32,000 nucleotides of DNA from Candidatus Saccharimonadota bacterium (lineage in GTDB: Bacteria > Bacillota_I > Bacilli_A > Mycoplasmatales > Hepatoplasmataceae): the NCBI GenBank assembly GCA_027925325.1, contig AP027133.1, forward strand, positions 574,195 through 606,194. Reading direction: 5' to 3'. Of this stretch, positions 6,247 through 31,238 are shown piece by piece. Below the pieces are notes generated by a model. It had not been told where the DNA came from. It saw only the letters and a program-made list of their open reading frames with translations, and did not search any database. Position 1 is the stretch's first letter. Each line of letters starts with the position of its first letter. A program made the translations under genes and the position numbers.

Positions 6247-9200
6247 CTATAAATTAATAGTATTTTTAATAATTTTTTCAATATTATTTAATTCCATTTT
6301 TTGATTATTAAATCAATTTGAAATTCAAATACGATAAAAATTATAACCTCTTTCTTTTAAAAAGTCTTGCTTTGAAATATCTCTCTCTCTTACAGATTTA
6401 TAAGAATTTTTAATCGCCTGATCAGATTCTATCAAAAGAATTATTTTATGATTTTCATCATAAAATAAAAAATCTGCTTTATATCCATAAGTTTTATCTC
6501 TATTTATTACATATAAATTATATCTTTTTGCTATCTTTATAAGTTCTTGATATAAATCTTTTTCAAATTTAGAATTAAAATTTTTAATACTAAATTGATT
6601 TTGATTGATTATTTTTTTATTATTATATGACTTAATACAATGTTTTAAAAATCTATAAAGAATATAAATTCCACTTTCTAAATTATCTTTATGTGCTTGA
6701 TTACGAATAAAAAAATTCTCAAAATCATTTTGTCTAATTGACGTAATTACATACATTTTTAATTTTGCTCTTGTAACCGCAACATTAATTCTATTTACTC
6801 CGCCAAATTTATTAATTGGACCAAAATTAAAAGATATTTTTCCTTCTTCATTTCTTCCATACAAAGTTGAAAAAATAATTATATCCCTTTCGTCCCCCTG
6901 AACATTTTCAATATTTTTAACAAAAAGATTGACATCATCACTATTAATTCAATTAGAAAAATTAAAATCATTATAACTTATACTTGCTAATTTCTCTGAA
7001 AGATATTTTTCTTGTTTTGAGTTCATTGTAATAATTCCAATAGATTTTTTATTTAAATTTAAATTATTTTTAATTTGATATAAAATTTCTATAATTTTAT
7101 CGATCTCGTTATGATTAAGTCCATTTTTATAAATTGAATCTTTTAATTCAAAATATTCTATCGGTTGAAAATTTTTATTTTTTCCATTTTTACTAATAAA
7201 TATAAGATTATCATTATAAAAAATATTATTTGAATATTCAATTAATTCCTTAAAATCAGAACGATAATGATATTTAAGCATAATATGTGGAAATTTAGTT
7301 TTTGCATAATTTAACAATGACAATTTATCATCAATTAAATTTTTCTCCTCAAATTTTTCAAATTCTTGATCAATATTTCTTGATACAAAAAAATTGGTTG
7401 GAGCTAATTGCTTTTCATCTCCTAAAATTACAACTTTTTTAGATCTTTCAATCGCAGGTAAACTTCTTTCAATAAACATCTGTGAAGCTTCATCAAAAAT
7501 AACAAGATCAAACTTATCCTTAAGATCAAAAATACTTGAAATTGTCTCAGGATTTAATAATCAAATTTTATATAAATTCTTAAAGGTATCTTTTTCAGTT
7601 TTTAAAAACATTTTGATACCTCATTTTTTTTTCGGATCAAAAACTATTCTTTTAAATTGGGGCGATGAATTTTCAAAATTTATTAAAAATTGCTTTGCTA
7701 AATAATACTTTGTTATTTCCGAGAATTTTTTAATTTTTGTTTGTCTTAAATTTATAAATTTATCATAATTATTTTTTCAATCAAATATTTGATCTCTTAA
7801 TTTAAATATATATTTATATTTATTAAGTCTTTCTCGAAAAATTTTAAATTCTATTATTTGCAAAAGTTTATCAAATTTTATTTTCTGACTTTTTATATAG
7901 TTAATAAAATCTTTTAGAAATGAAAATTCTTCTTCAGAAAAATTTTTTATTATTTGAAATTTGTTAAATTTCAAAGTTACATTTTGCTCTTCTTTTTTAT
8001 ATTTTGTAATTAATTTTTCCTGATTTTTTAAATTATCAAAAAAAATCTTATTATATAAATCTTCTATTTTAGTTTTAGTTTGATGATAATTTTTTAAATT
8101 TAAAAGACAATTTTGCAAAAATGTAATCATTTCTGTCATATCTTGATTTACTTGTAAATCTCTTTTTAAACCGGCGAATTTTCGATCATATTTTCTTTTG
8201 CTATTTAAAAATTTTTTCTTTAAAAGGAAAAAATTGTTTTTTAAATTTAAATATTTTTCTTCAATATTTTCCTTTTTCAAATAATTTGAAAATATATTAA
8301 AAACAAAATTATTTTTAATTACCAAATTAATATAATCAACTAAAAATGGTGTAAAAACTGAAAGATATATTAAATCATCACAAATCTTAAATAATTGTTC
8401 AAATCGATCAATTGGATAATCAATTAGAAATGAGCTTAAACGATCATTTCTAAGATATTCATAAATATCTTTATATTTTTTTTCATTTCAATTTTGTAAT
8501 AAATCTTTTCATAATAAAGATATCGTCTTTTTTTCTTTTTTTAATTCTTCTTTTTTTCCATTAATCAAAAAATTAAAATAATCAGAAATATCACCATCGT
8601 TTTTTTTAATAAAATCCAAACCATAAATATTAGCTATTTCATCTCTTAATTTGATCATTTGTTCAATTTTCGATAATAAATTATTTTCAAATAATTCTTT
8701 TATTTTATTTAAAAAAATAGAAAAATTATTATTTTTATTTCCTTCATTTAAAATAAAAGAGTTGATTTTTTCATCATAAATACTCTCTTTTAAAAATTCA
8801 TTAAAATTTTTAAATTTAAAATAAAACTCCTCAATTAATTCATATATTTTTTTATTTTCAAAAAATTCAATATCTTTATAAAAATCAATTGAATCCATAT
8901 TTTTTAAATACTCTACAATTTGATCTGATAAATTGTCAATCTTATTAATTTCTTCTTGAAATTTTTTATCATTAATAAATTCAAATTTTTCTGTTTCTAA
9001 TATTTTTTTTGCCGCTTCATAAGATTGATTTATCTGTTGATAAAAATCACCTTTATTATTCATATCTGTAAGATAAAACGCAAATTTATTTAAATTATTC
9101 AATCTTTGATAAATAACATCAAGCGCAGCTCTTTTTTCTGAAACTAAAGCAATTTTTTTATTTTTTAAAATAGCATCATAGATGATTGATAAAATTGTTT

Positions 9201-10311
9201 GTGATTTTCCTGTTCCAGGAGGTCCTCAAATAACTAAATTATTAGTCTTATTTTCATTTATTTTTTTTAAAGCAAAAAACTGTTGATTATTTAAATTATC
9301 AATATAAAATAATCCTTTTTCATCAAGATTATATGCATTTTTTTCAATATGATTATCAAACAAAAATTGAGAATTTTTTTGTGAATTTTTTTTATTTACT
9401 AAACTATATCTTTCTAGTTGTTTTGTAAAATATCCTTTTTCTAAAATTAAATTTAGATCTCTTTTTACAGCATTATCATACTTATCAAAAAAACCGATTG
9501 TAAAACTTTTTTCTATCTTAAAAAGAAAATTAAATTTTTCAATGTTACTATAATCTTTAAATTGATCTAAATTATCAGAATAAGATTCAAGATAGGTAAT
9601 AATTTCTTTTTTATTTCTTTTAAAATTAACAAATAAATTTTTAATATTTGATAAAAATGATTTTTCATAATCAAAATAATAATCTTTATTTTTTAAAAAA
9701 TTTTCAATTATAAAATTGTTAACTATAACATCTCTTGTATTATCATAATACATTCTTACTTTATGTAAATTATTATCAAATATTAAAATTATCGGAACAA
9801 AAAAAATTGGTGATCTAATAGGAATTGTCTTATTTATATTTGTAAAATTTGTAAGAAAATAATAAGGGACAAAATAAAAGGTTTGATAACCGATTTCATT
9901 TTTAATTTTTTGATTTTCTTTTTCAATATTATTAAAAATTAAAAAATTTTTTTCTTGATCTGTTTTTTTACTAGAAATTTTTTTTCTAATTTTTCTACAA
10001 TATATTTTTTCTTTATTTTTTATATAAAATAAATTAAAATTTTTAATAAAATTTTCCTTATTTTCAATAATATTCAATTTTAAATCAACTTTTAAATTCT
10101 TAATATCTTTTTTTAAAAAGCTATTTAATTTTAATAATGATTCTTCTTGTAAATTGGAAATTGAAAAATTATAATTAGTACTTTTCGATGTTCAAATATT
10201 GCGATTTCTCTTATTTAAATTTGTTAGCTTTTTTTGAAAATTTTCTAATTCCTGTTTAAATTTTTCTGATATCTTTATTTTTTGCAAATTATTTTCTTCT
10301 TTATGCTTCAT
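6247..10311 (-). CDS. Large (1354 aa) DUF4011-like / Upf1-like SF1 helicase / Vsr-DUF559-like endonuclease fusion (Hhe-like architecture).
   Basis: Five track ORFs (6325.., 6949.., 7777.., 8509.., 9226..) all share one frame and are separated only by TGA. The ends were checked codon by codon: ATG at 10311 preceded by AGGAG and an upstream TAA, and TAG at 6247. Motifs: Walker A VIWGPPGTGKSQT, motif II VIFDEASQM, motif III ILGDEKQLAPT, VQGDERDIIIFS, RINVAVTRAK. The C-terminal nuclease-like block is YKADFLFYDENHKIILLIESDQ...RERDISKQDFLKERGYNFYRIW. Confidence 0.8.
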
Positions 10312-10425
10312 TTCTTATCTCCTAAATTTTCAAAAAAATGAATAAGTAAAATTATTATATATTTTTATAAAAATATAAAATTAAGATATTTTTTAAATAT
10401 TTAATTAAAATATAATTAATTTAGA

Positions 10426-11154
10426 ATGACTAATGAAGAATTAATTTTTATTAAAAACAATAATTATGATTATTATTTAAGAATAATAACAAAAATAGAA
10501 GATGAGTATCAAAAAAGTAAAAAAATAAAACTAGCAAATATTTTTTCTGCTTTTTTTTATTATCTTGGTTATTTAATTTTGATTACTTTATTTCAAAACG
10601 CCGCTGCTTTAAGTTTTGCAAAAAAAGGACAATTTAGAAAAGCTGCTTTATATGCATTGCTTGGTTTAAATATTTTTTTCTTTTTATATTTAGGAGAAAG
10701 TAAAAAATGAAAAAAACATTATAATCAAAAAATTAAAAAAATAAATTTAACTCAAGAAATTCAAGAAAAAATTAAAAATCAAGAATTTTTAAAAGGCTTA
10801 ACAGAAGATAAATTAGAATTAATTAAAAAAGAAAAATTATTTAATACAAATCCTCCTAAAGATAAAATCAAATTAGGCTTAGTTTATGGCTCAAGTGTAA
10901 GAGCTAAAAATTTATTTAAAGATATTGGGGCAAATATTGTAAATGTAAGTGGAGGAAAAATGCAAAGTTATTTTTATCTTTTAAATGATGCAAGAGAAGA
11001 TGCGATCGAACAGATGATTAAAAATGCAATATTAACCTACGGTGAATTAGATAATAAAGAAATTCATAATATAAGATTATCAACATCACAAATTGCAAAT
11101 GGTGCAAGTGAAATTTTAGTATATGGAACGGTTGTTAAAAATAAAAATTCTTAA
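10426..11154 (+). CDS. Membrane-anchored YbjQ/UPF0145-domain protein (242 aa): two predicted N-terminal TM helices, a K/E-rich linker and a C-terminal YbjQ domain.
   Basis: Track ORFs 10426..10710 and 10960..11154 are in one frame and join through the TGA at 10708. The C-terminus LGLVYGSSVRAKNLFKDIGANIVNVSGGKMQSYFYLLNDAREDAIEQMIKNA...ILVYGTVVK aligns well by eye to E. coli YbjQ ([43 protein letters not shown]...VSGTAVK). Hydrophobic segments: IFSAFFYYLGYLILITLF and ALYALLGLNIFFFLYL. Confidence 0.72.
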
Positions 11155-12902
11155 TTTATTAAAATTACAGCAAATTTTTTATTCTCAGTTTCCATTTTAC
11201 TTACAAGTTCTTTGATTTGCTTTTCCTCTAAATAATCATCATGTCTTATTTGTTCAAAATTTCTTAAACCCATTTCCCCAATCATTTGATAAAGGGATGC
11301 AAGTGAATTTATTGCTCTCAATTCAAAATGAATTTCATAAATTTTATTAGGAAGAAAATCTCGATCACTATTATAATAAAGAATCTTTTTTGGTTGTTTA
11401 AAAATATTTTGTTCAAATTCTTGTTTTAAATAATTTTCAATTGCAAAAATCATCTCTAATAATTTTAGAGTATCAATTTTTTCTATATCATCTTTAATAC
11501 TATGCAATCCTTTTTCTAAAGATAATATTTTTGTGCTTCCAATTTGATCTCTTTCAAAAATATTTATTTTAAATTGACTATCATATAGAAAAGGTGAATG
11601 TGTTGCAAATATAATGTATATACTCTTAAATAATTCCTTATTTTTTGCAATTAAATTTTTTAAATATTTTTTTAATTCAATTTGTAAAGGAATTGATAAA
11701 TTATTTTCCGGTTCATCAACCATAATAATTTTAATTTGATCATTAGAATTATCATGAATAATAGAATTTAAAGTAATAATAAAATCTAAAAAGACCTTTG
11801 CTCCATTACTATTATTTTTACTTTCGTTACTTCCTATTAATCAATCACCTTTAGAATTAAATTGTAATTTTATTTGATTATTTGTAATATTTATTTTAAT
11901 TTCAAAATCAATGAATTCAAAATTTTGTAAAACCTTTTTTAAATTATTTCGAATCTTTTCTTCAATTTTTGATTTTTCTTCATTTTTTTCATTTCCATTA
12001 GGCATTTCATAATAAAATTTTAATTGTTCTTTTTCAGGATATAAAAAATTTAAAATATCATTAATTCTTGCCTTTTCCGAAAAAGCTTCACCTGTATTTA
12101 TTCTTTCAAACAAATAATTTAAATCAAAATTATATTCAAGATCATTAATTCTTGAATTATTTTTAAGATAAACAATTTCAGGTTTCTTGATCAAAATTTT
12201 TTCAATATTTAAAAAAACTCTAAAAATAAATTCAGTTTTTAAATAAATTTTAGTGTTATCTATATTTAAATAAGCAATCTCAGAAGTTAATTCAAATCTT
12301 CCTTTGCTTTTTGCATATGAAATTACTCTTTTAATCTTATTAAATATTTTTTCTAATAATTTTTGTGTTTTTAGACCAACATTGTAATCTCTAAATTCCT
12401 GATAAAAATTTTTATAGAAATCTTCATTATTAGGATTTTTAAGATATTCAAAAATAATTTTTTTATAAATTGAATTATTATCAAGTGCATGTAAATAATT
12501 ATTATTAGAATCTACTCCTACTTTTCTTCCTTCATTTCGAAAAATATTCATATATTTATCTTTTAAACTCTTTGGAAATAAATAATTTAAACTATTTTCT
12601 AATATTTTTAATTCTTTTTCCGAAAAATTATAATTAATAAAAACTCTCGATACGATATCTTCTTCTTTTTGGATCGCAAAATTTATTTTTTCAGAACCCT
12701 TAATATCACGTAAAAATTTAGTTCTTAAATCTAAATTATTTCTTCTTAAAAAAGTTACCGCTTCTAAAAAAGATGTTTTCCCAGAAGAATTTAAACCCAA
12801 AAGTAAATTTATATTATTACTATATAAATCTATCTTTTGTTTTTTAAAGATTGTCTTTATCCCCTCTACTTCAAAAGAAATTTTATTTTCTTCTATATTC
12901 AT
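11151..12902 (-). CDS. ABC/OLD-family (AAA_15/AAA_21-like) P-loop ATPase, 583 aa, with an unassigned C-terminal region of ~145 aa.
   Basis: Track ORFs 11151..11723 and 11841..12902 share a frame and join via the TGA at 11841; the gap codons were checked. Motifs: Walker A LLLGLNSSGKTSFLEA, a long helical insert, Walker B IKIIMVDEPENNLSIPLQ, and the His-switch region IIFATHSPFL. Confidence 0.75.
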
Positions 12903-15210: not shown

Positions 15211-15471
15211 TTAATTTTTAATACAGGAAATAATCGTTCAAGTATCAGGTCATCAATCAGTTCCGATAAGCGTATCACAAAAAGCAATAAAGAGAAATGC
15301 AATTAAGATAAATAACAAAATATATTTTACTAAAAAATAAATTCCCTTAAAAAAATAATTAATAAAAAAATTAACAATGATTACAATGATTACTATCAGA
15401 AAAATCAATATTATTATTCAGAAGAGCATGATTCAATATCATGCTCAATCACTATAAAAATTATTAACCAT
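15211..15471 (-). CDS. Small hydrophobic Trp-rich membrane protein, paralog A (86 aa, 7 TGA-encoded Trp).
   Basis: This gene is invisible under the standard code. Under code 4, the ATG at 15471 to the TAA at 15211 reads MVNNFYSDWAWYWIMLFW...(hydrophobic)...FIAFCDTLIGTDWWPDTW.... It is paralogous to the adjacent gene, with conserved terminal motifs. Confidence 0.55.
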
Positions 15472-15517: not shown

Positions 15518-15838
15518 TTAATTGCCATTTATTCAATCGACTAAATTTCAACTTGATGGTCATCAATCTGTTCCAATAAACGTATCACAAAAAGCAATAA
15601 ATAGAAAAACAGAAAGAGCAACACCAACAATCGGACCGATAATTTTAAAAATTAAAGCAAGTGAAAATTTAAAAATAAATTTTAATAATATAAATATAAA
15701 AATAAAAGCAAGAATTGCAATTAGTAATCAGAAAATGAAAGTTCAATATCATTCTCAATCGCTATAAAATGCACCAACTGAATTACCCAAACTTGCCCCT
15801 AATTGTCCAAAATCATTATACACAGATTTTAATTTCAT
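15518..15838 (-). CDS. Small hydrophobic Trp-rich membrane protein, paralog B (106 aa, 8 TGA-encoded Trp).
   Basis: Under code 4, the ATG at 15838 to the TAA at 15518 reads MKLKSVYNDFGQLGASLGNSVGAFYSDWEWYWTFIFW...FIAFCDTFIGTDWWPSSWNLVDW.... The + strand track ORF 15522..15767 is its antisense shadow. Confidence 0.55.
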
Positions 15839-18814: not shown

Positions 18815-19410
18815 TATATTTCCTCTTGATTTTCAAAAACATATTTCATCGTATCTTCATTTAAATAACTTATATTTAAATCTTTCGGAACCCCTAATTT
18901 TATTTTTGAAAATAAAAATTTTCGTTCCTTAAAGCCTTCTTGTAATTCTTTTTTAAAAACTCTGATAATAATTTCACTTTCAATTGAAGGAGGTGTAAGA
19001 AAACTTATTTTTAAAATTTTTTCATTTTGATGTAAAAAATCTTTTAATCTCAATATAACATTATTTAAATTATTATTATTTAAATAATCACTCTTGTGAT
19101 TAAAATTTAAATTAAATATTTTTATTGTTTGATTTTGATATAAATCATAAATTTTAAAATAATCATTTAAATTTTCAACAATATAAATAAAATCATTACT
19201 CAATTTACAGTTAATACATTCTTTTCCTTCATAAAAAGTTTTACATAAATTGCAAAAATTAATATTATCTAAAAGATTTATAATTTTAGTTAATTTTTTT
19301 AAATTTTCTTCTTTATCTTTAATAAATTCAATCGCTAATCTTTGAGCTTGTTTTGGTCCTATTGAAGATAATAAATTCAATTCATTAATTAAAATATTTA
19401 AATTTTTCAT
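18814..19410 (-). CDS. recR: Recombination protein RecR.
   Basis: Intact 198-aa ORF with the helix-hairpin-helix region SIGPKQAQRLA and a C4 zinc finger (CNLCKTFYEGKECINC). Its stop overlaps the tmk start (TAATG). Confidence 0.88.
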   Translation of the reverse strand: MKNLNILINELNLLSSIGPKQAQRLAIEFIKDKEENLKKLTKIINLLDNINFCNLCKTFYEGKECINCKLSNDFIYIVENLNDYFKIYDLYQNQTIKIFNLNFNHKSDYLNNNNLNNVILRLKDFLHQNEKILKISFLTPPSIESEIIIRVFKKELQEGFKERKFLFSKIKLGVPKDLNISYLNEDTMKYVFENQEEI

Positions 19411-19417
19411 TTTTTAA

Positions 19418-21256
19418 TTATGTATTAACTATTTCTAATTTGTCGCCAAAAATTCTCTTATATTTATCAATAATCTCTTGATTTACAATTTGATCAATTT
19501 TAATTTTTTCCGTAACTTTTTTATCTTCTGAACGAAGTTTTTTATAAACTAAATTTAATTTATTCCAATCTGCAGAAAGAATTGGAAGTAAAATTACTTT
19601 TTCACCAAATAATTCTTTAATAAAAGATAAAAAATTTTCTTCAAGTGAAAAGTTTTTAAAAATAGTATATTGTTGTGAATTTGGCAATCCAAAAATAATA
19701 ATTGAATCTTTAGAAGAAACAAGAATTTTTCCTTCTAATAGACAAGAAACATATTCCTTTATTGATTTTTTATTAATATAAGAAGAAAGATAATTAAATC
19801 GATCAATAAATTTCTTTGTTTTTTTCTTGTCAAATTCAAAAAGAACGGTAAGATAATGTTTAATATTTACAAAATCAGTAATTACATTTTTCTCATTTTT
19901 ACCTTCAGTAATCTTAATTTTTCTAATTGCAAAATCAGTATTTAAATTATTAAATTCACTTTCGATAATAAAACTTTCAATCTCCTCAGTTTTTGCATTT
20001 TCAATCTCTTGTTCCGAAATTGAAGTATCTTCTTCTGCAAGCAAATTTTTTTCAACTTTTTCAGAATCAGAAATTTCTTCTTCAAATTTTTCTTCTTCTA
20101 ATTTATTTTCGCTAAGTAAATCAGATTTTTGATCATCAATTTCTTCTTCAATTGATTTTTCTTCTTCAATTGATTTTTCTTCTTCTATAAAATTTAAATT
20201 ACTTTCTTCATCATTTTTTCTATCAATATATTCTGCTTCTTTAACTGATTGATCTTCATTAACTTCATTATCAGATTCAGAATTATCCTTAACAATAAAA
20301 ATATTTATTAAAGATAATTTAAGTAAATAAGGATCTTTTACATTTATTGATAAATTTATAAGATTATTTAATAATTTTTGGTATTTTAAATTACCTTCTA
20401 AAATATTATCTGTAAGATAATTTATTAAAACTAATAAAAAATTTTTAAAATCAACTTCCGATTTTTGAATAAAAGAGAGCATTTTCTTATTATCTTTTAA
20501 ATAGTCTTTTAAAAGATGATTGGGTAATATTCCTAAGATTTTTGTAATTTTTTCCTCATTTAAATCTTTTGAATAAAGAAAAATAGTTTCAAGATAAGAT
20601 ATCGCATCTCTTAATGAACCATTTGCGATTTTTGCGACATATTTTAAACTATCATCAGAAATATTGGCTTCTTCAGCTTCTGCAATTTCTGTAATTTTTG
20701 CAAGAATCTCTTTCTCATTTAATGTTTCTAAATTTAAAATTATCAAACGAGAAAGAACTGTTTCTGGAATTTTATTAATTTCAGTAGTTGCAAGCAAAAA
20801 AATTGTTTTTTCAGGCGGTTCTTCTAATGTTTTAAGTAAAGCATTAAAAGCTGACTTTGAAAGCATATGAATTTCATCAATAATATAAACCTTATAAAAA
20901 GATTTTGTCGTTGCATAATTAGATTTATCTTTAATATCCCTAATCTCATCGACACCATTATTTGAAGCCGCATCTATTTCAATTACATCAAAACTTGAAA
21001 AACTATTAATTTCATTACAAGAATCACAATTATTACAAGGATTATATGATTTACTATCTCTTTCCTTACAATTAATCGCTTTTGCAAAAATTCTTGCTAG
21101 TGTTGTCTTTCCGACCCCTCTTATTCCATAGAAAAGATAACCATGATTAATTTTATTTTCTAAAATTGAATTTATTAAGATTTGTTTTACAATTTTCTGT
21201 CCACAAACTTGATCAAAGTTTTTGGGACGATATTTAATATATAAAGAATTTGTCAT
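19418..21256 (-). CDS. dnaX: DNA polymerase III subunit tau/gamma.
   Basis: Intact 612-aa ORF with the AAA+ Walker A GIRGVGKTTLARIFAK, a zinc module CNNCDSCNEI, Walker B YIIDEIHML and sensor LATTE. A long acidic insert follows. Confidence 0.93.
   Translation of the reverse strand: MTNSLYIKYRPKNFDQVCGQKIVKQILINSILENKINHGYLFYGIRGVGKTTLARIFAKAINCKERDSKSYNPCNNCDSCNEINSFSSFDVIEIDAASNNGVDEIRDIKDKSNYATTKSFYKVYIIDEIHMLSKSAFNALLKTLEEPPEKTIFLLATTEINKIPETVLSRLIILNLETLNEKEILAKITEIAEAEEANISDDSLKYVAKIANGSLRDAISYLETIFLYSKDLNEEKITKILGILPNHLLKDYLKDNKKMLSFIQKSEVDFKNFLLVLINYLTDNILEGNLKYQKLLNNLINLSINVKDPYLLKLSLINIFIVKDNSESDNEVNEDQSVKEAEYIDRKNDEESNLNFIEEEKSIEEEKSIEEEIDDQKSDLLSENKLEEEKFEEEISDSEKVEKNLLAEEDTSISEQEIENAKTEEIESFIIESEFNNLNTDFAIRKIKITEGKNEKNVITDFVNIKHYLTVLFEFDKKKTKKFIDRFNYLSSYINKKSIKEYVSCLLEGKILVSSKDSIIIFGLPNSQQYTIFKNFSLEENFLSFIKELFGEKVILLPILSADWNKLNLVYKKLRSEDKKVTEKIKIDQIVNQEIIDKYKRIFGDKLEIVNT
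20141..20185 (-). repeat. Perfect 18-nt tandem duplication plus a partial third copy inside dnaX, encoding EEKSIE repeats.
   Basis: ttcttcttcaattgattt occurs at 20141-20158 and again at 20159-20176, followed by ttcttcttc. The protein reads IEEEKSIEEEKSIEEE. Confidence 0.85.
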
Positions 21257-21334
21257 TTTTACTCATATTATTATTTAAATATATTAGTTATTATAAAACT
21301 TTTATTAATTAATAATTAATAAAAGTAAATAAAA

Positions 21335-21412
21335 AAAGTCGCACATGACACTTCTCGACGTGGCTGCTTTGTTTCCAACCTGACCAGGTTACAAGGTTAT
21401 CATTGCGACAAT
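21335..21412 (-). ncRNA. ffs: Small (4.5S-type) signal recognition particle RNA.
   Basis: The minus-strand sequence gtcgcaatgataaccttgtaACCTGGTCAGGTTGGAAACAAAGCAGCCacgtcgagaagtgtcatgtgcgac contains the conserved SRP domain IV motif (CCAGGUCAGGU..GGAA..AGCAGCC). The 5' gtcgcaatga pairs with the 3' tcatgtgcgac, and a U-run follows. It lies immediately upstream of dnaX, as scr does in Bacillus. The ends are approximate (within a few nt). Confidence 0.8.
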
Positions 21413-21434
21413 AGAAATTATAACATTATTTAAT

Positions 21435-22679
21435 TTAGAATTTTTCAAAATCAAGATATTTTTTAAGAGCTTTAGGTACTATTATTGATCCATCTTTTTG
21501 ATAATAATTTTCAACAATTGCCGCAAATAAACGATCAATTGCAAGAGCAGAACCATTATAAGTATAGACAAATTCTTTTTGTCTATTTTCTTGATCAATT
21601 AATACCCTCGCATTCATTCTTTTTGCTTGAAAATCACCGATGAAAGAAAGGGAAGAAATTTCGCGATATCTTTTTTGCCCTGGAAATCAAATTTCAAAAT
21701 CAATTGTTTTCTGACTTGCAAAAGATAAATCACCACTACAAAGATTAACCAAACGATAAGAGATTTCAAATTGATCTAATAAATCCTCAATTAAAGAAAT
21801 CATCTCCTTAAAATCATTTTCAGAGTGATCTTTTAGACCGATCTTTACAATTTCAACCTTTCGAAATTGATGTAAACGAATAATTCCTTTTGTATCTTTT
21901 CCCGCTGATGCTGCTTCTTTTCGAAAACAATTTGTAAGTGCAAAATACTTTAAAGGTAATTGTTCTTTTTTCAAAATTTTATTATAGACTAAATTGGTAA
22001 GAGAAACTTCTGCTGTCGGAATTAAAAATTGTTTATTTGTAAGTTCAAATAATTCATCTCTAAATTTTGGTAATTGAGCGGTATTGTAAAGCATTCGCTC
22101 ATTTACAATCACCGGACAATCAATCATTGTATATTTTTTTTGCAAATTAAAATCAAGCATAAATCTTTCTAAAGCAAAAATCATCAATGCTGCTTCATTT
22201 TGATAAATAACATGTCTTCTTCCAGATAGAGAAATTGCTTCTTTTTCTAAAATTAAATTTTTCTTTTTTAAAATATCTAAATGAAAAAGAGAATCCTTTT
22301 TATGATTATTTTTTTCTACTGTTTTTAAGACAATATTTTCCTTTTCACCATTACCGATCGGAACATCATTAAGAGGAATATTAGGAAATAAACTAACAAG
22401 TTCTTTTATTTTTGCTAAATCAAGTTTATTTTTATCAGAAATTATTTTTATTTCATTTGAAAGAATTTTGGCATCATTTTTTAAATTAAAATTACCGATT
22501 ATTTTTTTTGATAAGTTATTTAATTTATTTCTTTTTTGTTCTTCAATTATTAAATTATCAGCGTATTTTTGGTAGATTTTAATAAAGGCATTAAAGTCTT
22601 TTTTATTAAAATCACTTTTTTTAGATAAATTTTTTAGATAAAAATCTTTATTATTAATTAATTCTTTTAAATTAAACAT
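21435..22679 (-). CDS. serS: Serine--tRNA ligase.
   Basis: Track ORFs 21435..21617 and 21687..22679 share a frame and are joined by the TGA at 21687. It has an N-terminal coiled-coil arm and class II motifs (FRKEAASAGKDTKGIIRLHQF, and EIWFPGQKRYREISS across the join). Confidence 0.93.
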
Positions 22680-27147: not shown

Positions 27148-28167
27148 CTAAATTTCAATAAATTGAATTTTTTGTTTCAAATTTTGATCGACTTTTGCTT
27201 TCGGTGATGTAATAAAAGAATTTAAATTTTTATCAAGTAAAATTTTTAATAATAAATTTGAATTTTTTTTATCTAATTCTGAAAAAATATCATCCAAAAG
27301 TAAGATAAATTCTAAATCATATTGCTCTCTTAAATATTCAATAAAAGAAATTACAAGCAATAAAATTGCCATTTTCATGTGTCCATCTGAAGAAATATTT
27401 AAATAAAATTCTTTATCATATTCAATAATATAATCATCTTTTGTAATTGTAATTGGTGGTTTTAAGAGTAGATTTTCTAAAATATAATCTTTTAAAATAA
27501 TTGCTTTTTTGTAATATAATTTTAGTTCTTTATTTAGATAATTTTTTGTATTTTTCTGATAAAAAAAGTTTATGTTTTCAACTTCTTTTTCTCTTATATT
27601 GATTATCTCTTCTTCAAGATCTTTTAATGAATTAACAATTTCTGATTTTAAAGATCGATTTATAACAATTGAATTATTATTTATATCTTGCAAAGAAATC
27701 AATAATTTATCAAAATCTAATAATAACTTTTCATAAATTTTGTGATCTTGTTTAATTAACATATTAATTAAACTTTGTCTTGTTGTTTTTTGATATTTAA
27801 AATTATTGATTAATTTATTATTTATAAAAATTGGAATTGAAACAATTGTCTTATTAATACCGATATTTTCTGTCCCATTAAGTAAAACTTTTTTTTTAAT
27901 TGGAGATAATTCTACATCCAATTCCTTTCAAAGTTTATTAAAATCCAATAATTTTAAATTAATTTTTGCAAGTTGTTGTTCGTTTTTGATTAAATCTTGA
28001 AATTTCTTTGTTCGAAAAGAGGAATTTTCCATTGCAAAAAAAAAGGCCTCTAAGATACTTGTTTTACCGCTGCCATTTTCGCCTAAAAAAACATTTATTT
28101 TTTTTTTAAAATAAATGTTTTTTTCACTATGATTGCGAAAATTTTGTAAATTAATTTCTTTAATCAT
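27148..28167 (-). CDS. recF: DNA replication and repair protein RecF.
   Basis: Track ORFs 27148..27921 and 27928..28167 share a frame and are joined by the TGA at 27928. Motifs: N-terminal INLQNFRNH, Walker [16 protein letters not shown] and Walker [13 protein letters not shown]. Confidence 0.85.
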
Positions 28168-28235: not shown

Positions 28236-31200
28236 TTATCCTTCTTTTTTCGCTTTATATTGAATTACAGCATGTTTTATAAGTTCTGTTGTCATCGTAA
28301 ATAAAGCTGAAAATATTCAATAAATTGCCAATAAAACAGGAACAATTAATCCCATAAAAACAAACACACCGATCATAATATTTTGTGTTTTATTTTGTTT
28401 TTTCATCGCCTTTTTTGTCTGTTCATCAATTCTTTTTATTCCTTTTCGCTTATTTGAAAGCATTCTTGGCAATTTACTTGATAATCCTTGTGAAAAACCA
28501 ACAGCAACACCAACAAATAAATAAGCAAAAAATAAACTTCCGACACTAAACATTCCCGAAATTGCAGAAATTGAAAATGAAAATTGACCTACTGAGATAA
28601 TTTTATAAGCTGGTAAGGCCGAGATAATTATCCAAATTGAAAGAAAAATTGGCATCGTCACAAAAATCGTTCCTAAAGATGCAAATGGGTTAACATTATT
28701 CTTACGATAAAGAGCCATTATTTCTTGTTGCTTACGCATTTTCATTTGTTTATTCTTTTTATCATATTGTTGATATTTGGCATTTATTTGTGCAACTTGA
28801 GTCTGAACTTCTTGCATTTTTGATTGATTTTTATTAGAACCAAAAGACATCGCATATCCAATTCCTCTTAAAAGGAAAGTAATAATAAAAATTCCAATAA
28901 TTACCCCTCAAACAGCACCTACAGGAAAGATTGATTGAATGATAATTGATAATTGTGCTAATGGTCAAACAAAAAGCCCATACATCGGTCCATAAGATGG
29001 ATCTCATGCATCTTGTCAATCACCAATATCATCTGTAAAAATTTCATGATTATTATTTAAGCCATCTCCTTCGGCTTGACTTAAAATACGATAAAGAGAG
29101 GCTGTAATTCCAAAATTAGCAGTTGTTTCAACCAATGGATCAATCAAACCAGATTGAGAATCAGTATCAAAAGTTGTTCCTATACCGATAAAAGGAGTAT
29201 AAAAATTAACATCACCAGTAAGCGAACTTTTCTGTTTTAAATCCGTAACTTCATCACCATTTTCATCATTATAAATAATTTCATATCCAATATTTATATA
29301 TTGACTATAATCAATTAAATAATTGGCAATTAATTCTTCTCCTTCCACCGTAAATAAATTACTTAAATTATTATTATCGAAATCATCACTATTATCAAAG
29401 AAAAGAAATGCGTTGGGATCAAAATTATTAGCAGCATCTGCTTTATTTGATGCTAATTCGATTATTTGTCAATCTCCATTTTGATCTTCTTCCATAAATG
29501 CTCATCCTGAAGAATCAGTTCGATTAGATTGCCCAGCTTTTGTTCCATCCATTCAATCAGATGATCTTAATACTGATACATTTTCATAAGTTGTAAAATC
29601 ATCTTCATCGCTTAAATCATAATCATAATTACTTTGATATGTTGTTTGACTATTATAAGTCTCATTTTCATAATTATATCCTGTTATTAGTTGCATTGAT
29701 TTTTGACTAGGATAAAAAACCTCTGATGGATCAGAAACACTACGAGAATTAACAACATTATAAGATGTACCAACGATTAAATCGACAGAATCTATTCCAT
29801 TTCCCGTAGAACTATTAAGTAAATAAGGTGAAGTTAAAAAATTAAATCCAGTTGTATAATCAACATTTCCAGCATTAGGAGGACTACTATCTTCATAAAA
29901 AATATAACTAATAATTCCATCGACAGTTTTATTGACATTAGCAGGAATCGTAATATCTTCAATCGTTTGATCTTGATCACTATAATCTAATTGATAGTCA
30001 ATTACTTTTTCAAAATCATATTGAAAATTATCTGTTAAAACCGAAATTTGATCACTAATTGAATTAAATTCGCCTCCTGTTTGAGAATTAACTCCGCCAT
30101 AATAAGCTAAAATATTTGTATATAACTTAACTTCACTTTGATAAAGATCATATTTATCATTACTTACTTCTAATGAATCCTCATTTTGATCCTCAATTAA
30201 TTGATGAGAATAAGTAACACTATCAACAGGAACTCAATTTATTGGATCAATTAAATCAGAAGGACTAACATTACCTACTTGATGATAACTATCAATAAAT
30301 TCTTGTTCTGAATTATTATTTAGAGATGAGAAATCGGTTAAAGGACCGGTATAGTAAGCAAATCCACGTTGCACAGTTGAATAATAATCATCACCATTTA
30401 CAACTTCATCACCATTACTATCAATTACATTATCATTTTCATCATAAGAAAATCCTTGAATATATGCAAGAAAATCATCACTATATAAAGAATTATTATC
30501 AGCAAGATAAGCATAAAATTCAACAGCATCGATCTCTTGATTGTCATTTCCATAAGGATTTGTGACTTCATTATAAATATCATATTCTTCTAAATTAAAT
30601 GTAGTATCTTCTAATCCGTATTGATAAAATTGCTTCTTAACATCACTTGAGAAATAATCAATATTAAAAGGCATTATTAAATATTGATCATCTCTTAAAT
30701 CAACATTTGTTCAATCATATCCTAAAAAAGCTGTTGAATAATAAGTACTAAAAGAAAGATTAGCGACTGATGATAATAAAGAAACTTGATAATCAGCTAT
30801 ATTTTCACCAGGAGTAGTAAATAAGTTATAATCAATATCTTCAGGATCATAATTTTCATTATTTATCCCTAGTAAGTAATTGTAATTAGGTCGATATATT
30901 TCAAATGGCAATAAGAAATTATCCTCAATTATATCATCAGTAAATTGATTATCTCCTGTTGCAACAATTTGATAAGAAAATGTTGATTTTTGTCCTTTAT
31001 ACATATTAGGAACAACAGATTGCTTATTTCCATAAAATTCAAGTCCTCTAGAAACCTGTTGTGTTGTAGTATGCATAAACTCAGCAGCACAACCTCAAAG
31101 GGTAACAACTGTTAAAAAAGAAAATAAAATTCACTTACTATACTTTCTAATTCATTTTAAAAATTTGCTAAAAGAAAAATGACCAGATTCATCTGCTTTC

Positions 31201-31238
31201 TTTACTTCTTCATAAAATGAGTGATTACCTTTTGCCAT
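28236..31238 (-). CDS. yidC: Membrane protein insertase YidC, 1000 aa. It has a lipoprotein-type signal sequence and an unusually large (~700 aa) extracytoplasmic D/N/Y/S-rich domain before the Oxa1/YidC core.
   Basis: Track ORFs 28317.., 29016.., 30234.. and 30711.. all share one frame. I read every codon of the gaps (28851-29015, 29349-30233, 30675-30710, 31077-31238, 28236-28316) and found only TGA, with no TAA or TAG. The start is the ATG at 31238 (a TAG lies upstream). The signal and lipobox read ILFSFLTVVTLWGCAAE. The C-terminal core (FVWPLAQLS...MQEVQTQVAQINAKY...KQQEIMALYRKNNVNPFASL...MPIFLSIW) is YidC-like. It follows rnpA in the conserved order. Confidence 0.8.

Follow-up and report, generated by a model that had tools for sequence, protein, structure and literature searches.

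An ATPase gene and a membrane-anchored YbjQ gene that converge in a Hepatoplasma-type genome: probable neighbors by descent

The OLD nucleases, which include P2 Old, the class 1 and class 2 OLD proteins and GajA, combine an N-terminal ABC ATPase of the AAA_15 type (with split Walker A and Walker B motifs and a helical insertion) with a C-terminal Toprim domain that carries a catalytic Glu and a DxD motif. ATPases of the same superfamily are components of Gabija (GajA, with the UvrD-like helicase GajB), Septu (PtuA and PtuB), PARIS (AriA and AriB) and AbiL (AbiLi and AbiLii). Here we analyze a stretch of 32,000 nucleotides (nt), referred to below as the window, from the 0.6-Mb genome of a Hepatoplasma-type Mollicute (assembly GCA_027925325.1, contig AP027133.1), a member of a group of gut-gland symbionts of isopods. 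In this window the gene for an ATPase of the superfamily converges on the gene for a membrane-anchored protein with a YbjQ/UPF0145 domain, named TM-YbjQ here for its transmembrane (TM) helices, and the two stop codons overlap. An initial annotation suggested that the pair might constitute an effector or sensor module or, together with a neighboring helicase-nuclease operon, a single four-gene system. We consider it likely, with some reservation, that the two are instead separate lineage-specific variants of known families, standing tail-to-tail by descent and overlapping through genome compaction, and that they do not make up a two-gene system.

The window ATPase has the N-terminal features of the OLD nucleases but differs from them in that no Toprim domain with its catalytic Glu and DxD is found. 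In relation to Gabija, the ATPase has no adjacent, co-oriented UvrD-like GajB gene; the only helicase encoded nearby is Upf1-like (AAA_11/AAA_12) and joined to an MTES nuclease, forms a transcription unit of its own, and is separated from the ATPase gene by the YbjQ gene. The partners of the other systems are likewise missing: no HNH protein is encoded by the four genes scanned for the PtuB of Septu (among the ATPase relatives, the L017 locus alone has an HNH_2 gene upstream), no DUF4435/Toprim partner as in PARIS is found in the ATPase C-terminus or the neighbors, and no AbiLii accompanies the ATPase. The window family further differs from the ATPases of Septu, PARIS and AbiL by a clade-specific C-terminal domain. 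PADLOC models for these systems match the window ATPase weakly (AriA, 1e-12; PtuA, 7.5e-8; GajA, at best 6e-5), with no AbiLi match at E<=0.1. The best full-length AriA match looks generic, because the same residues match Pfam AAA_15.

Co-occurrence, neighborhoods and the convergent junction

Windows of this sort need the correct genetic code before gene models are judged. The GC content is 22.4%, and under table 11 TGA codons break up nearly every gene, ATPase and TM-YbjQ included, so that gene counts will be wrong in any initial pass that uses the standard code. Under table 4 (TGA = Trp) the window consists of long, closely packed open reading frames (ORFs), in which ATPase and TM-YbjQ are intact (Table 1). 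Each contains one in-frame TGA read as Trp under code 4: codon 354 (nt 11841-11843) of the ATPase and codon 95 (nt 10708-10710) of TM-YbjQ. Other genes recovered under table 4 include pyrG, metG, tatD, mnmE, rsmI, tmk and recR, as well as dnaX, serS, gyrA, gyrB, recF, yidC and rnpA. ATPase, TM-YbjQ, helicase-nuclease and pentapeptide gene are all under purifying selection, with ratios of nonsynonymous to synonymous substitution rates (dN/dS) of 0.16-0.39, 0.20-0.44, 0.26-0.37 and 0.41-0.62, respectively, compared with 0.16-0.42 for housekeeping neighbors; the pentapeptide gene is the fastest among the genes compared, and all of these ratios are rough, as dS is probably saturated.

Table 1. Coordinates of features in the window (positions counted from its first letter).
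Feature	Position	Strand	Basis and remarks
Pentapeptide-repeat protein, 303 aa	5324-6235	-	Pfam Pentapeptide, 3.8e-53; 11 nt downstream of the helicase-nuclease gene
SF1 helicase fused to MTES_1575 nuclease, 1354 aa	6247-10311	-	Pfam AAA_11, AAA_12, MTES_1575
Divergent spacer, 114 nt	10312-10425		Helicase start 10311, YbjQ start 10426
Membrane-anchored YbjQ protein (TM-YbjQ), 242 aa	10426-11154	+	Table-4 ORF
Two-helix TM hairpin, aa 36-65 and 73-91	10531-10698	+	Hydropathy scan
YbjQ/UPF0145 domain, aa 149-238	10870-11139	+	Pfam YbjQ_1 (PF01906)
TTAA common to both convergent TAA stops	11151-11154		Plus-strand TAA 11152-11154; minus-strand TAA 11153 to 11151
AAA_15/AAA_21 ABC-type ATPase, 583 aa	11151-12902	-	Table-4 ORF, Pfam
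ATPase C-terminal region of ~145 aa, aa 440-583	11154-11585	-	Position where OLD proteins have Toprim
H-loop ATHSP, aa 433-437	11592-11606	-	Translation; contains H435
Walker B and subsequent loop KIIMVDEPENNL, aa 391-402	11697-11732	-	MVDEPENNL at aa 394-402
Walker A / P-loop GLNSSGKTS, aa 36-44	12771-12797	-	Translation
Bacterial small signal recognition particle (SRP) RNA	21323-21419	-	Rfam RF00169, 52.3 bits; between dnaX and serS

ATPase and TM-YbjQ genes are adjacent in four loci alone (L001-L004), all of them from Hepatoplasma. Adjacency within the genus is uninformative, because the whole region from dnaX to metG, tatD included, is collinear. Outside the genus the two families do not co-occur. 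We collected nine distinct, non-redundant ATPase loci (L005, L006, L007, L010 and L015-L019; 109 kb in total), and a TM-YbjQ hidden Markov model run over them under codes 4 and 11 finds no YbjQ domain. In the other direction, a metagenome scan yields a 40%-identical TM-YbjQ on contigs of 268 kb and 322 kb (L013/L014), in the gene order rnpA-yidC-TMYbjQ-rsmG-parA-parB-ychF and with neither an ATPase nor a helicase within 16.7 kb around it, and a 41%-identical one on a 957-bp contig (L012), where the next gene downstream runs in the same direction and the 3' end of an ATPase gene is not found. With YbjQ present at 0/9 ATPase loci and the ATPase at 0/2 TM-YbjQ loci, the effector-sensor module proposed initially is not borne out, and functional coupling between the two proteins is probably absent. 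The survey of TM-YbjQ neighborhoods finds no ATPase or defense gene next to the family outside Hepatoplasma, which on this sample is the very result that the initial annotation had named as speaking against its hypothesis. Two-gene systems are generally recognized by adjacency in several unrelated lineages; in this small sample, adjacency is confined to one genus.

The neighborhoods of the nine ATPase loci are diverse. In L006 (P0011) the ATPase gene lies with genes for an N6_N4 methyltransferase, Tsp45I and two KAP NTPases and converges on the gene for a 721-aa orphan protein. The gene adjoins TraG/type IV secretion system genes in L007-9 (P0012), with an 89-aa TM protein encoded downstream of the ATPase relative in L007, and L015 (P0024) is a contig carrying Rep3, ParA and TraG. 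In L016 (P0022) a 299-aa TIR_2 protein is encoded convergently (9606-10505, -), 18 nt off. In L017 (P0026; 5582-7886) Abi_2 and a 397-aa HNH_2 nuclease (PADLOC HNH, 2.8e-29) are encoded directly upstream, and the downstream gene specifies a protein of 214 aa that ends in a C-terminal TM helix. The remaining loci comprise L005 (P0010), where the ATPase lies among housekeeping genes close to tatD, L010-11 (P0015), where it follows rpoBC and is followed by an 86-aa Cys-rich ORF, L019 (P0014), where it stands between genes for a P-type ATPase and rpiB, and L018 (P0025), a 2.2-kb contig. Pfam gives nothing usable for the variable neighbors of the ATPase relatives (the 86-aa Cys-rich, 89-aa TM, 721-aa, 276-aa and 196-aa proteins). 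The 721-aa orphan of L006 (9638-11803, -), from a Mollicute genome of 17% GC, contains a ParB-like 'LEGNRR' motif and has a weak PADLOC match to PD-Lambda-5_A (1.2e-4).

Since relatives adjoin restriction-modification, KAP, TIR, HNH_2/Abi_2 and plasmid or integrative and conjugative element (ICE) genes, a defense or mobile-element role of the ATPase is plausible from its genomic settings, and the defense type to which the initial annotation assigned the ATPase agrees with where its relatives are found. The ATPase also looks self-contained, because the neighbors differ even between the close pair P0022/P0026.

That the ATPase and YbjQ stop codons share a TTAA, as reported in the initial annotation, is read directly from the window; a special role for this overlap is not supported, given gaps of 7 nt in Candidatus Hepatoplasma crinochetorum and 20 nt in a relative from a Logan assembly, and its recurrence at unrelated pairs. 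An identical TTAA overlap is present at the pentapeptide/metG junction of Ca. H. crinochetorum (L001) and at the junction of the ATPase and the 721-aa orphan in L006; no gap separates metG from the pentapeptide gene in the window. Convergent gene ends lie -4 to +20 nt apart at 9 of the 10 junctions counted, the tenth (ATPase/TraG in L015) having a gap of 108 nt. The overlap thus appears generic, being lost in congeners and present at unrelated convergent pairs, and would result from the close packing of genes with TAA stops at a GC content of 22%. A terminator scan finds no hairpin between ATPase and YbjQ, its single terminator-like match lying inside the YbjQ coding sequence, so that convergent read-through at this junction, if present, would be a genome-wide property and not one of this pair. 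The same would hold for the antisense transcription or transcriptional interference that the initial annotation derived from the overlap. Should the two genes indeed be neighbors by descent, a stop-codon overlap together with a defense-like neighbor does not point to a system when the genome is compact, rich in AT and read with code 4.

Several observations weigh against this reading. The sample is small, with two independent TM-YbjQ loci outside Hepatoplasma, one of them the 957-bp contig, and the survey is incomplete, as two TM-YbjQ scans of 185,579 species genomes came back empty and missed even Hepatoplasma, and so carry no weight as negatives. The closest non-Hepatoplasma ATPase locus, L005, has a scaffold gap (a run of N) ~0.5 kb downstream of the ATPase. 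Vertical retention is odd for a defense gene: two lineages have the ATPase close to tatD, and its dN/dS is low. Finally, a closely abutting convergent downstream gene (TM-YbjQ, TIR_2 or the 721-aa orphan) is present at 3 of the 10 distinct ATPase-family loci, which would fit a modular design of ATPase plus effector.

In such a design, the ATPase clade would be combined with a swappable convergent effector, here a membrane-tethered TM-YbjQ oligomer that, once the ATPase senses infection, would signal or break up the membrane. The convergent near-abutting genes (TM-YbjQ at -4 nt in the window, TIR_2 at +18 nt in L016, the orphan at -4 nt in L006) speak for it, as do the small TM proteins encoded downstream elsewhere (89 aa in L007, 214 aa in L017), the lack of a recognizable effector domain in the ATPase, and the maintenance of the pair under purifying selection in so small a genome. 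It is countered by the occurrence of TM-YbjQ without the ATPase in a housekeeping setting from yidC to rsmG (L013), by the ATPase without YbjQ at nine loci, and by the wholly different neighbors of the close relatives P0022 and P0026; moreover, genes that converge cannot be co-transcribed, closely abutting ends are normal for convergent pairs in these genomes, and TM-YbjQ matches no PADLOC model. We regard the modular design as unlikely, and it survives solely because the sample is small and because of the loci with TIR_2 and the orphan. Its more general form is somewhat more doubtful: the ATPase clade would supply the sensor or motor that stays the same in a modular immunity, whereas the effectors (a TIR protein, the 721-aa orphan or small TM proteins) would be exchanged between loci, often with convergent genes at the 3' end of the ATPase gene, and the YbjQ oligomer would have been recruited in Hepatoplasma. 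If true, this would be the first immune role for the YbjQ/UPF0145 fold.

The ATPase family and its C-terminal region

The initial assignment of the ATPase to the OLD/GajA/PtuA/AriA superfamily, with split Walker A and B, is supported by Pfam, by structure comparison and by the intact motifs. The matches to AAA_15 (PF13175; 44.5 bits, cutoff 32.1) and AAA_21 (PF13304; 31.4 bits, cutoff 27) both pass their cutoffs, and the catalytic set is complete, comprising Walker A, a signature-like S-x-G-x-K, the Walker B DE and the H-loop His. In a 16-sequence family alignment G36, N38, G41 and K42 of Walker A are nearly invariant; D396 and H435 are invariant both there and in a 32-sequence alignment, and E397 is invariant in the former and nearly invariant in the latter. 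The helical insertion is ~300 aa long. An AlphaFold2 model from the 32-sequence alignment (pLDDT 74, pTM 0.75) is usable for the head and the helical insertion, while one from 3 sequences only (pLDDT 45) is unusable. The top Foldseek matches of the model are the heads of SMC3, Rad50 and condensin, and further matches include the retron Eco8 OLD protein (9lpa_B), a retron-IA PtuA-like ATPase and GajA (8u7i_A); all template-modeling scores are near 0.3, which indicates a generic ABC/SMC-type head.

Orthologs of the ATPase are 82% identical in the Logan assembly and 59% identical in Ca. H. crinochetorum. Searched exhaustively with HMMER, 1.84 billion representative proteins yield 34 matches at E<=1e-3, of which 7 reach E<=1e-10. 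The closer ones (E below ~1e-6) are AT-rich proteins of ~430-560 aa, and the contigs looked up for ATPase relatives are Mollicute-like, with 17-27% GC; genuine OLD proteins are among the most distant ones and have OLD-like_TOPRIM or Toprim_2 ~50-60 aa past the H-loop. On the relatives, PADLOC matches reach 8e-24 for AbiLi and 1.5e-27 for AriA, with mad3, PtuA and GajA matched as well. A word-index homolog search with the window ATPase returns Hepatoplasma proteins alone, and a profile query gives generic AAA_15 proteins only. Among phages, tblastn finds a single weak match, to an OLD-like gene of a Helicobacter phage; viral-contig scans with the relatives P0022 and P0012 and a plasmid tblastn search with P0024 give no match. 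To judge from these searches, the ATPase is a member of a tiny clade from Mollicutes within the superfamily of OLD/PtuA/AriA/AbiLi-type ABC ATPases.

No motif could be assigned initially to the C-terminal ~145 aa, and none is found here. Pfam finds no Toprim, OLD-like_TOPRIM or DUF4435 in the region, a PDB sequence search with it gives no match, and the Toprim motifs EG..D and DxD are not present in its alignment. Within the close family, the part past the H-loop is ~140 aa long and poorly conserved. The degenerate Toprim or DUF4435 domain for which the initial annotation proposed to look is not detected, and an hhalign comparison with Toprim regions from distantly related OLD proteins has a probability of 0.05%. 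A 'KKILYYNSD' strand at the position of the OLD 'LLVEGxSD' was considered as a remnant of Toprim and rejected, hhalign giving no support. From ~aa 497 on, the AlphaFold2 model has a pLDDT of 29-55, with a beta-alpha-beta-alpha-alpha pattern only, and is too uncertain there to support a Toprim assignment.

A housekeeping function has also to be weighed, in which the ATPase would be an SMC/RecN/Rad50-like DNA-maintenance enzyme of Hepatoplasmataceae and not a defense protein. The Foldseek ranking of SMC3, Rad50 and condensin heads, weak SMC_N and RecF matches, a location close to tatD that Hepatoplasma shares with the P0010 lineage, and a dN/dS of 0.16 against L004, as low as that of metG, are all consistent with this function. 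However, detectable homologs number 34 among the 1.84 billion representatives and are patchily distributed, with no single-copy core presence across Mollicutes seen so far, and relatives lie in plasmid/ICE-like, restriction, KAP, TIR, HNH and Abi neighborhoods. In addition, the best-matching families are AAA_15/AAA_21, AbiLi, AriA and PtuA, while SMC and RecN profiles score under their cutoffs, the helical insertion falls well short of the length of an SMC coiled coil, and RecF is already encoded in the window (27148-28167). We therefore consider the housekeeping function improbable.

Under the reading of separate families, the ATPase would be a Mollicute-restricted offshoot of AAA_15/AAA_21 that dimerizes on ATP like other ABC/SMC heads. 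It would work on its own, as a sensor or motor directed at foreign DNA or mobile elements, a role suggested by relatives in restriction/KAP islands, in plasmid/ICE DNA and in TIR or HNH_2/Abi_2 settings. This small Mollicute-only branch with no detectable Toprim is a lead in itself, as it may be a defense gene in bacteria with poorly charted immunity.

A 159-aa ORF (11533-12012, +) runs antisense within the ATPase gene and covers, on the other strand, the part that encodes the conserved Walker B; L004 has a mirrored counterpart. Most likely this ORF arises simply from reading AT-rich DNA with code 4 and is not a gene.

The membrane-anchored YbjQ protein

Classical YbjQ/UPF0145 proteins (E. coli YbjQ; PDB 1VR4, 2GTC, 1Y2I) are soluble and ~105 aa long. 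The C-terminal 90 aa of TM-YbjQ match this family (YbjQ_1, E=1.2e-18, 68.1 bits against a gathering threshold of 23), and the protein differs from its classical relatives by an additional ~145-aa N-terminal segment that contains the TM hairpin. A Lys-rich linker joins hairpin and domain. Hydropathy, linker and Pfam match thus agree with the two TM helices, charged linker and YbjQ domain described initially. The architecture of TM hairpin plus YbjQ is found in Hepatoplasma-like Mollicutes alone, and a word-index homolog search returns Hepatoplasma proteins alone. Orthologs are 60-78% identical and more distant relatives 40-41%. In an alignment of 40-62% identical relatives, the hairpin (YY.G..ILITLFQN; L.G.N..FFLY..E) is the most conserved part, above the YbjQ domain.

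The family profile matches 1VR4 and 2GTC (~1e-5) and 1Y2I, with five chains deposited per entry. Because the solved homologs are deposited as five chains, the YbjQ domain is proposed to oligomerize, probably on the cytoplasmic face of the membrane. Literature searches found no link of YbjQ to defense or immunity, and a viral-contig scan with TM-YbjQ gave no match. In the reading that we favor, the lineage-conserved combination of hairpin, Lys-rich linker and YbjQ domain may be a constitutive envelope-related protein, oligomeric on the cytoplasmic face. A membrane-anchored YbjQ in which the TM hairpin is the most conserved part could also help explain YbjQ proteins.

The helicase-nuclease and pentapeptide genes and other features of the window

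Hhe, ProA and PDC-S37 are described, as their family names indicate, as single-gene defense systems. The helicase-nuclease encoded next to TM-YbjQ, whose ORF contains ten in-frame TGA codons, resembles them in combining a superfamily 1 (SF1) helicase (AAA_11/AAA_12) with an MTES_1575 endonuclease, and PADLOC matches it to PDC-S37 (2.5e-121) and Hhe (1.6e-69). Its domain make-up is similar, but its NCBIfam scores for ProA (370.5, cutoff 1500) and Hhe (288.3, cutoff 2000) are far under the equivalog cutoffs; DUF4011 is matched weakly and in one ortholog only. The initial annotation had TM-YbjQ transcribed divergently from a helicase-nuclease operon: the divergent arrangement and its spacer are confirmed, whereas the 'operon' is one fused ORF. 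Three Hepatoplasma species have in common a 23-nt block of the spacer, AAGTAAAATTATTATATATTTTT (~10344-10366), which may serve both genes as a promoter core; elsewhere the spacer varies. Both strands of the spacer have promoter-like matches, in numbers not above shuffle expectation.

It could be supposed that ATPase, TM-YbjQ, the Hhe-like helicase-nuclease and the pentapeptide protein act as one four-gene unit with a Gabija-like pairing of ATPase and helicase. The genes are contiguous and collinear in 4/4 Hepatoplasma loci (the tandem of helicase-nuclease and pentapeptide genes is kept in L001-L004), the helicase-nuclease resembles defense proteins, and the spacer shared by YbjQ and helicase holds the conserved block. 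However, collinearity extends equally to the housekeeping genes on either side, which leaves synteny without a specific signal, and the four genes form three transcription units across both strands. The helicase is of the Upf1-like SF1 type with its own nuclease and not a UvrD-like GajB, and Hhe-type proteins are described as single-gene systems. Among the ATPase and TM-YbjQ loci examined, helicase-nuclease and pentapeptide genes occur in those of Hepatoplasma only; the Hhe/ProA/PDC-S37-like protein has no link to ATPase or YbjQ outside the genus. The single four-gene system considered initially is thus very improbable. Both it and the housekeeping ATPase are less likely than separate families standing tail-to-tail by descent and than the modular ATPase-plus-effector design. 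The pentapeptide-repeat protein is Qnr/MfpA-like, and the pairing of a helicase-nuclease with a possible DNA mimic may merit a look of its own.

Some further features lie outside the four genes. The YidC-like gene of the window (28236-31238, -) has an unusually long product of 1000 aa, and its L013 counterpart is 934 aa long; good conservation between them is limited to ~250 aa (57% identity). Two small membrane proteins of 86 aa (15211-15471, -) and 106 aa (15518-15838, -) are encoded by adjacent genes and have in common a motif, FYSDW.WYW, that precedes a TM helix. Both are kept in Ca. H. crinochetorum (L002 5756-6365), whose orthologs have no Pfam family match on record. In Ca. H. crinochetorum (L001/L002), genes with RCC1/WD40_RLD repeats are inserted between tatD and the ATPase (8510-9901) and again after metG (19231-21749); these insertions are absent from the window, so that the borders of the block differ between species.

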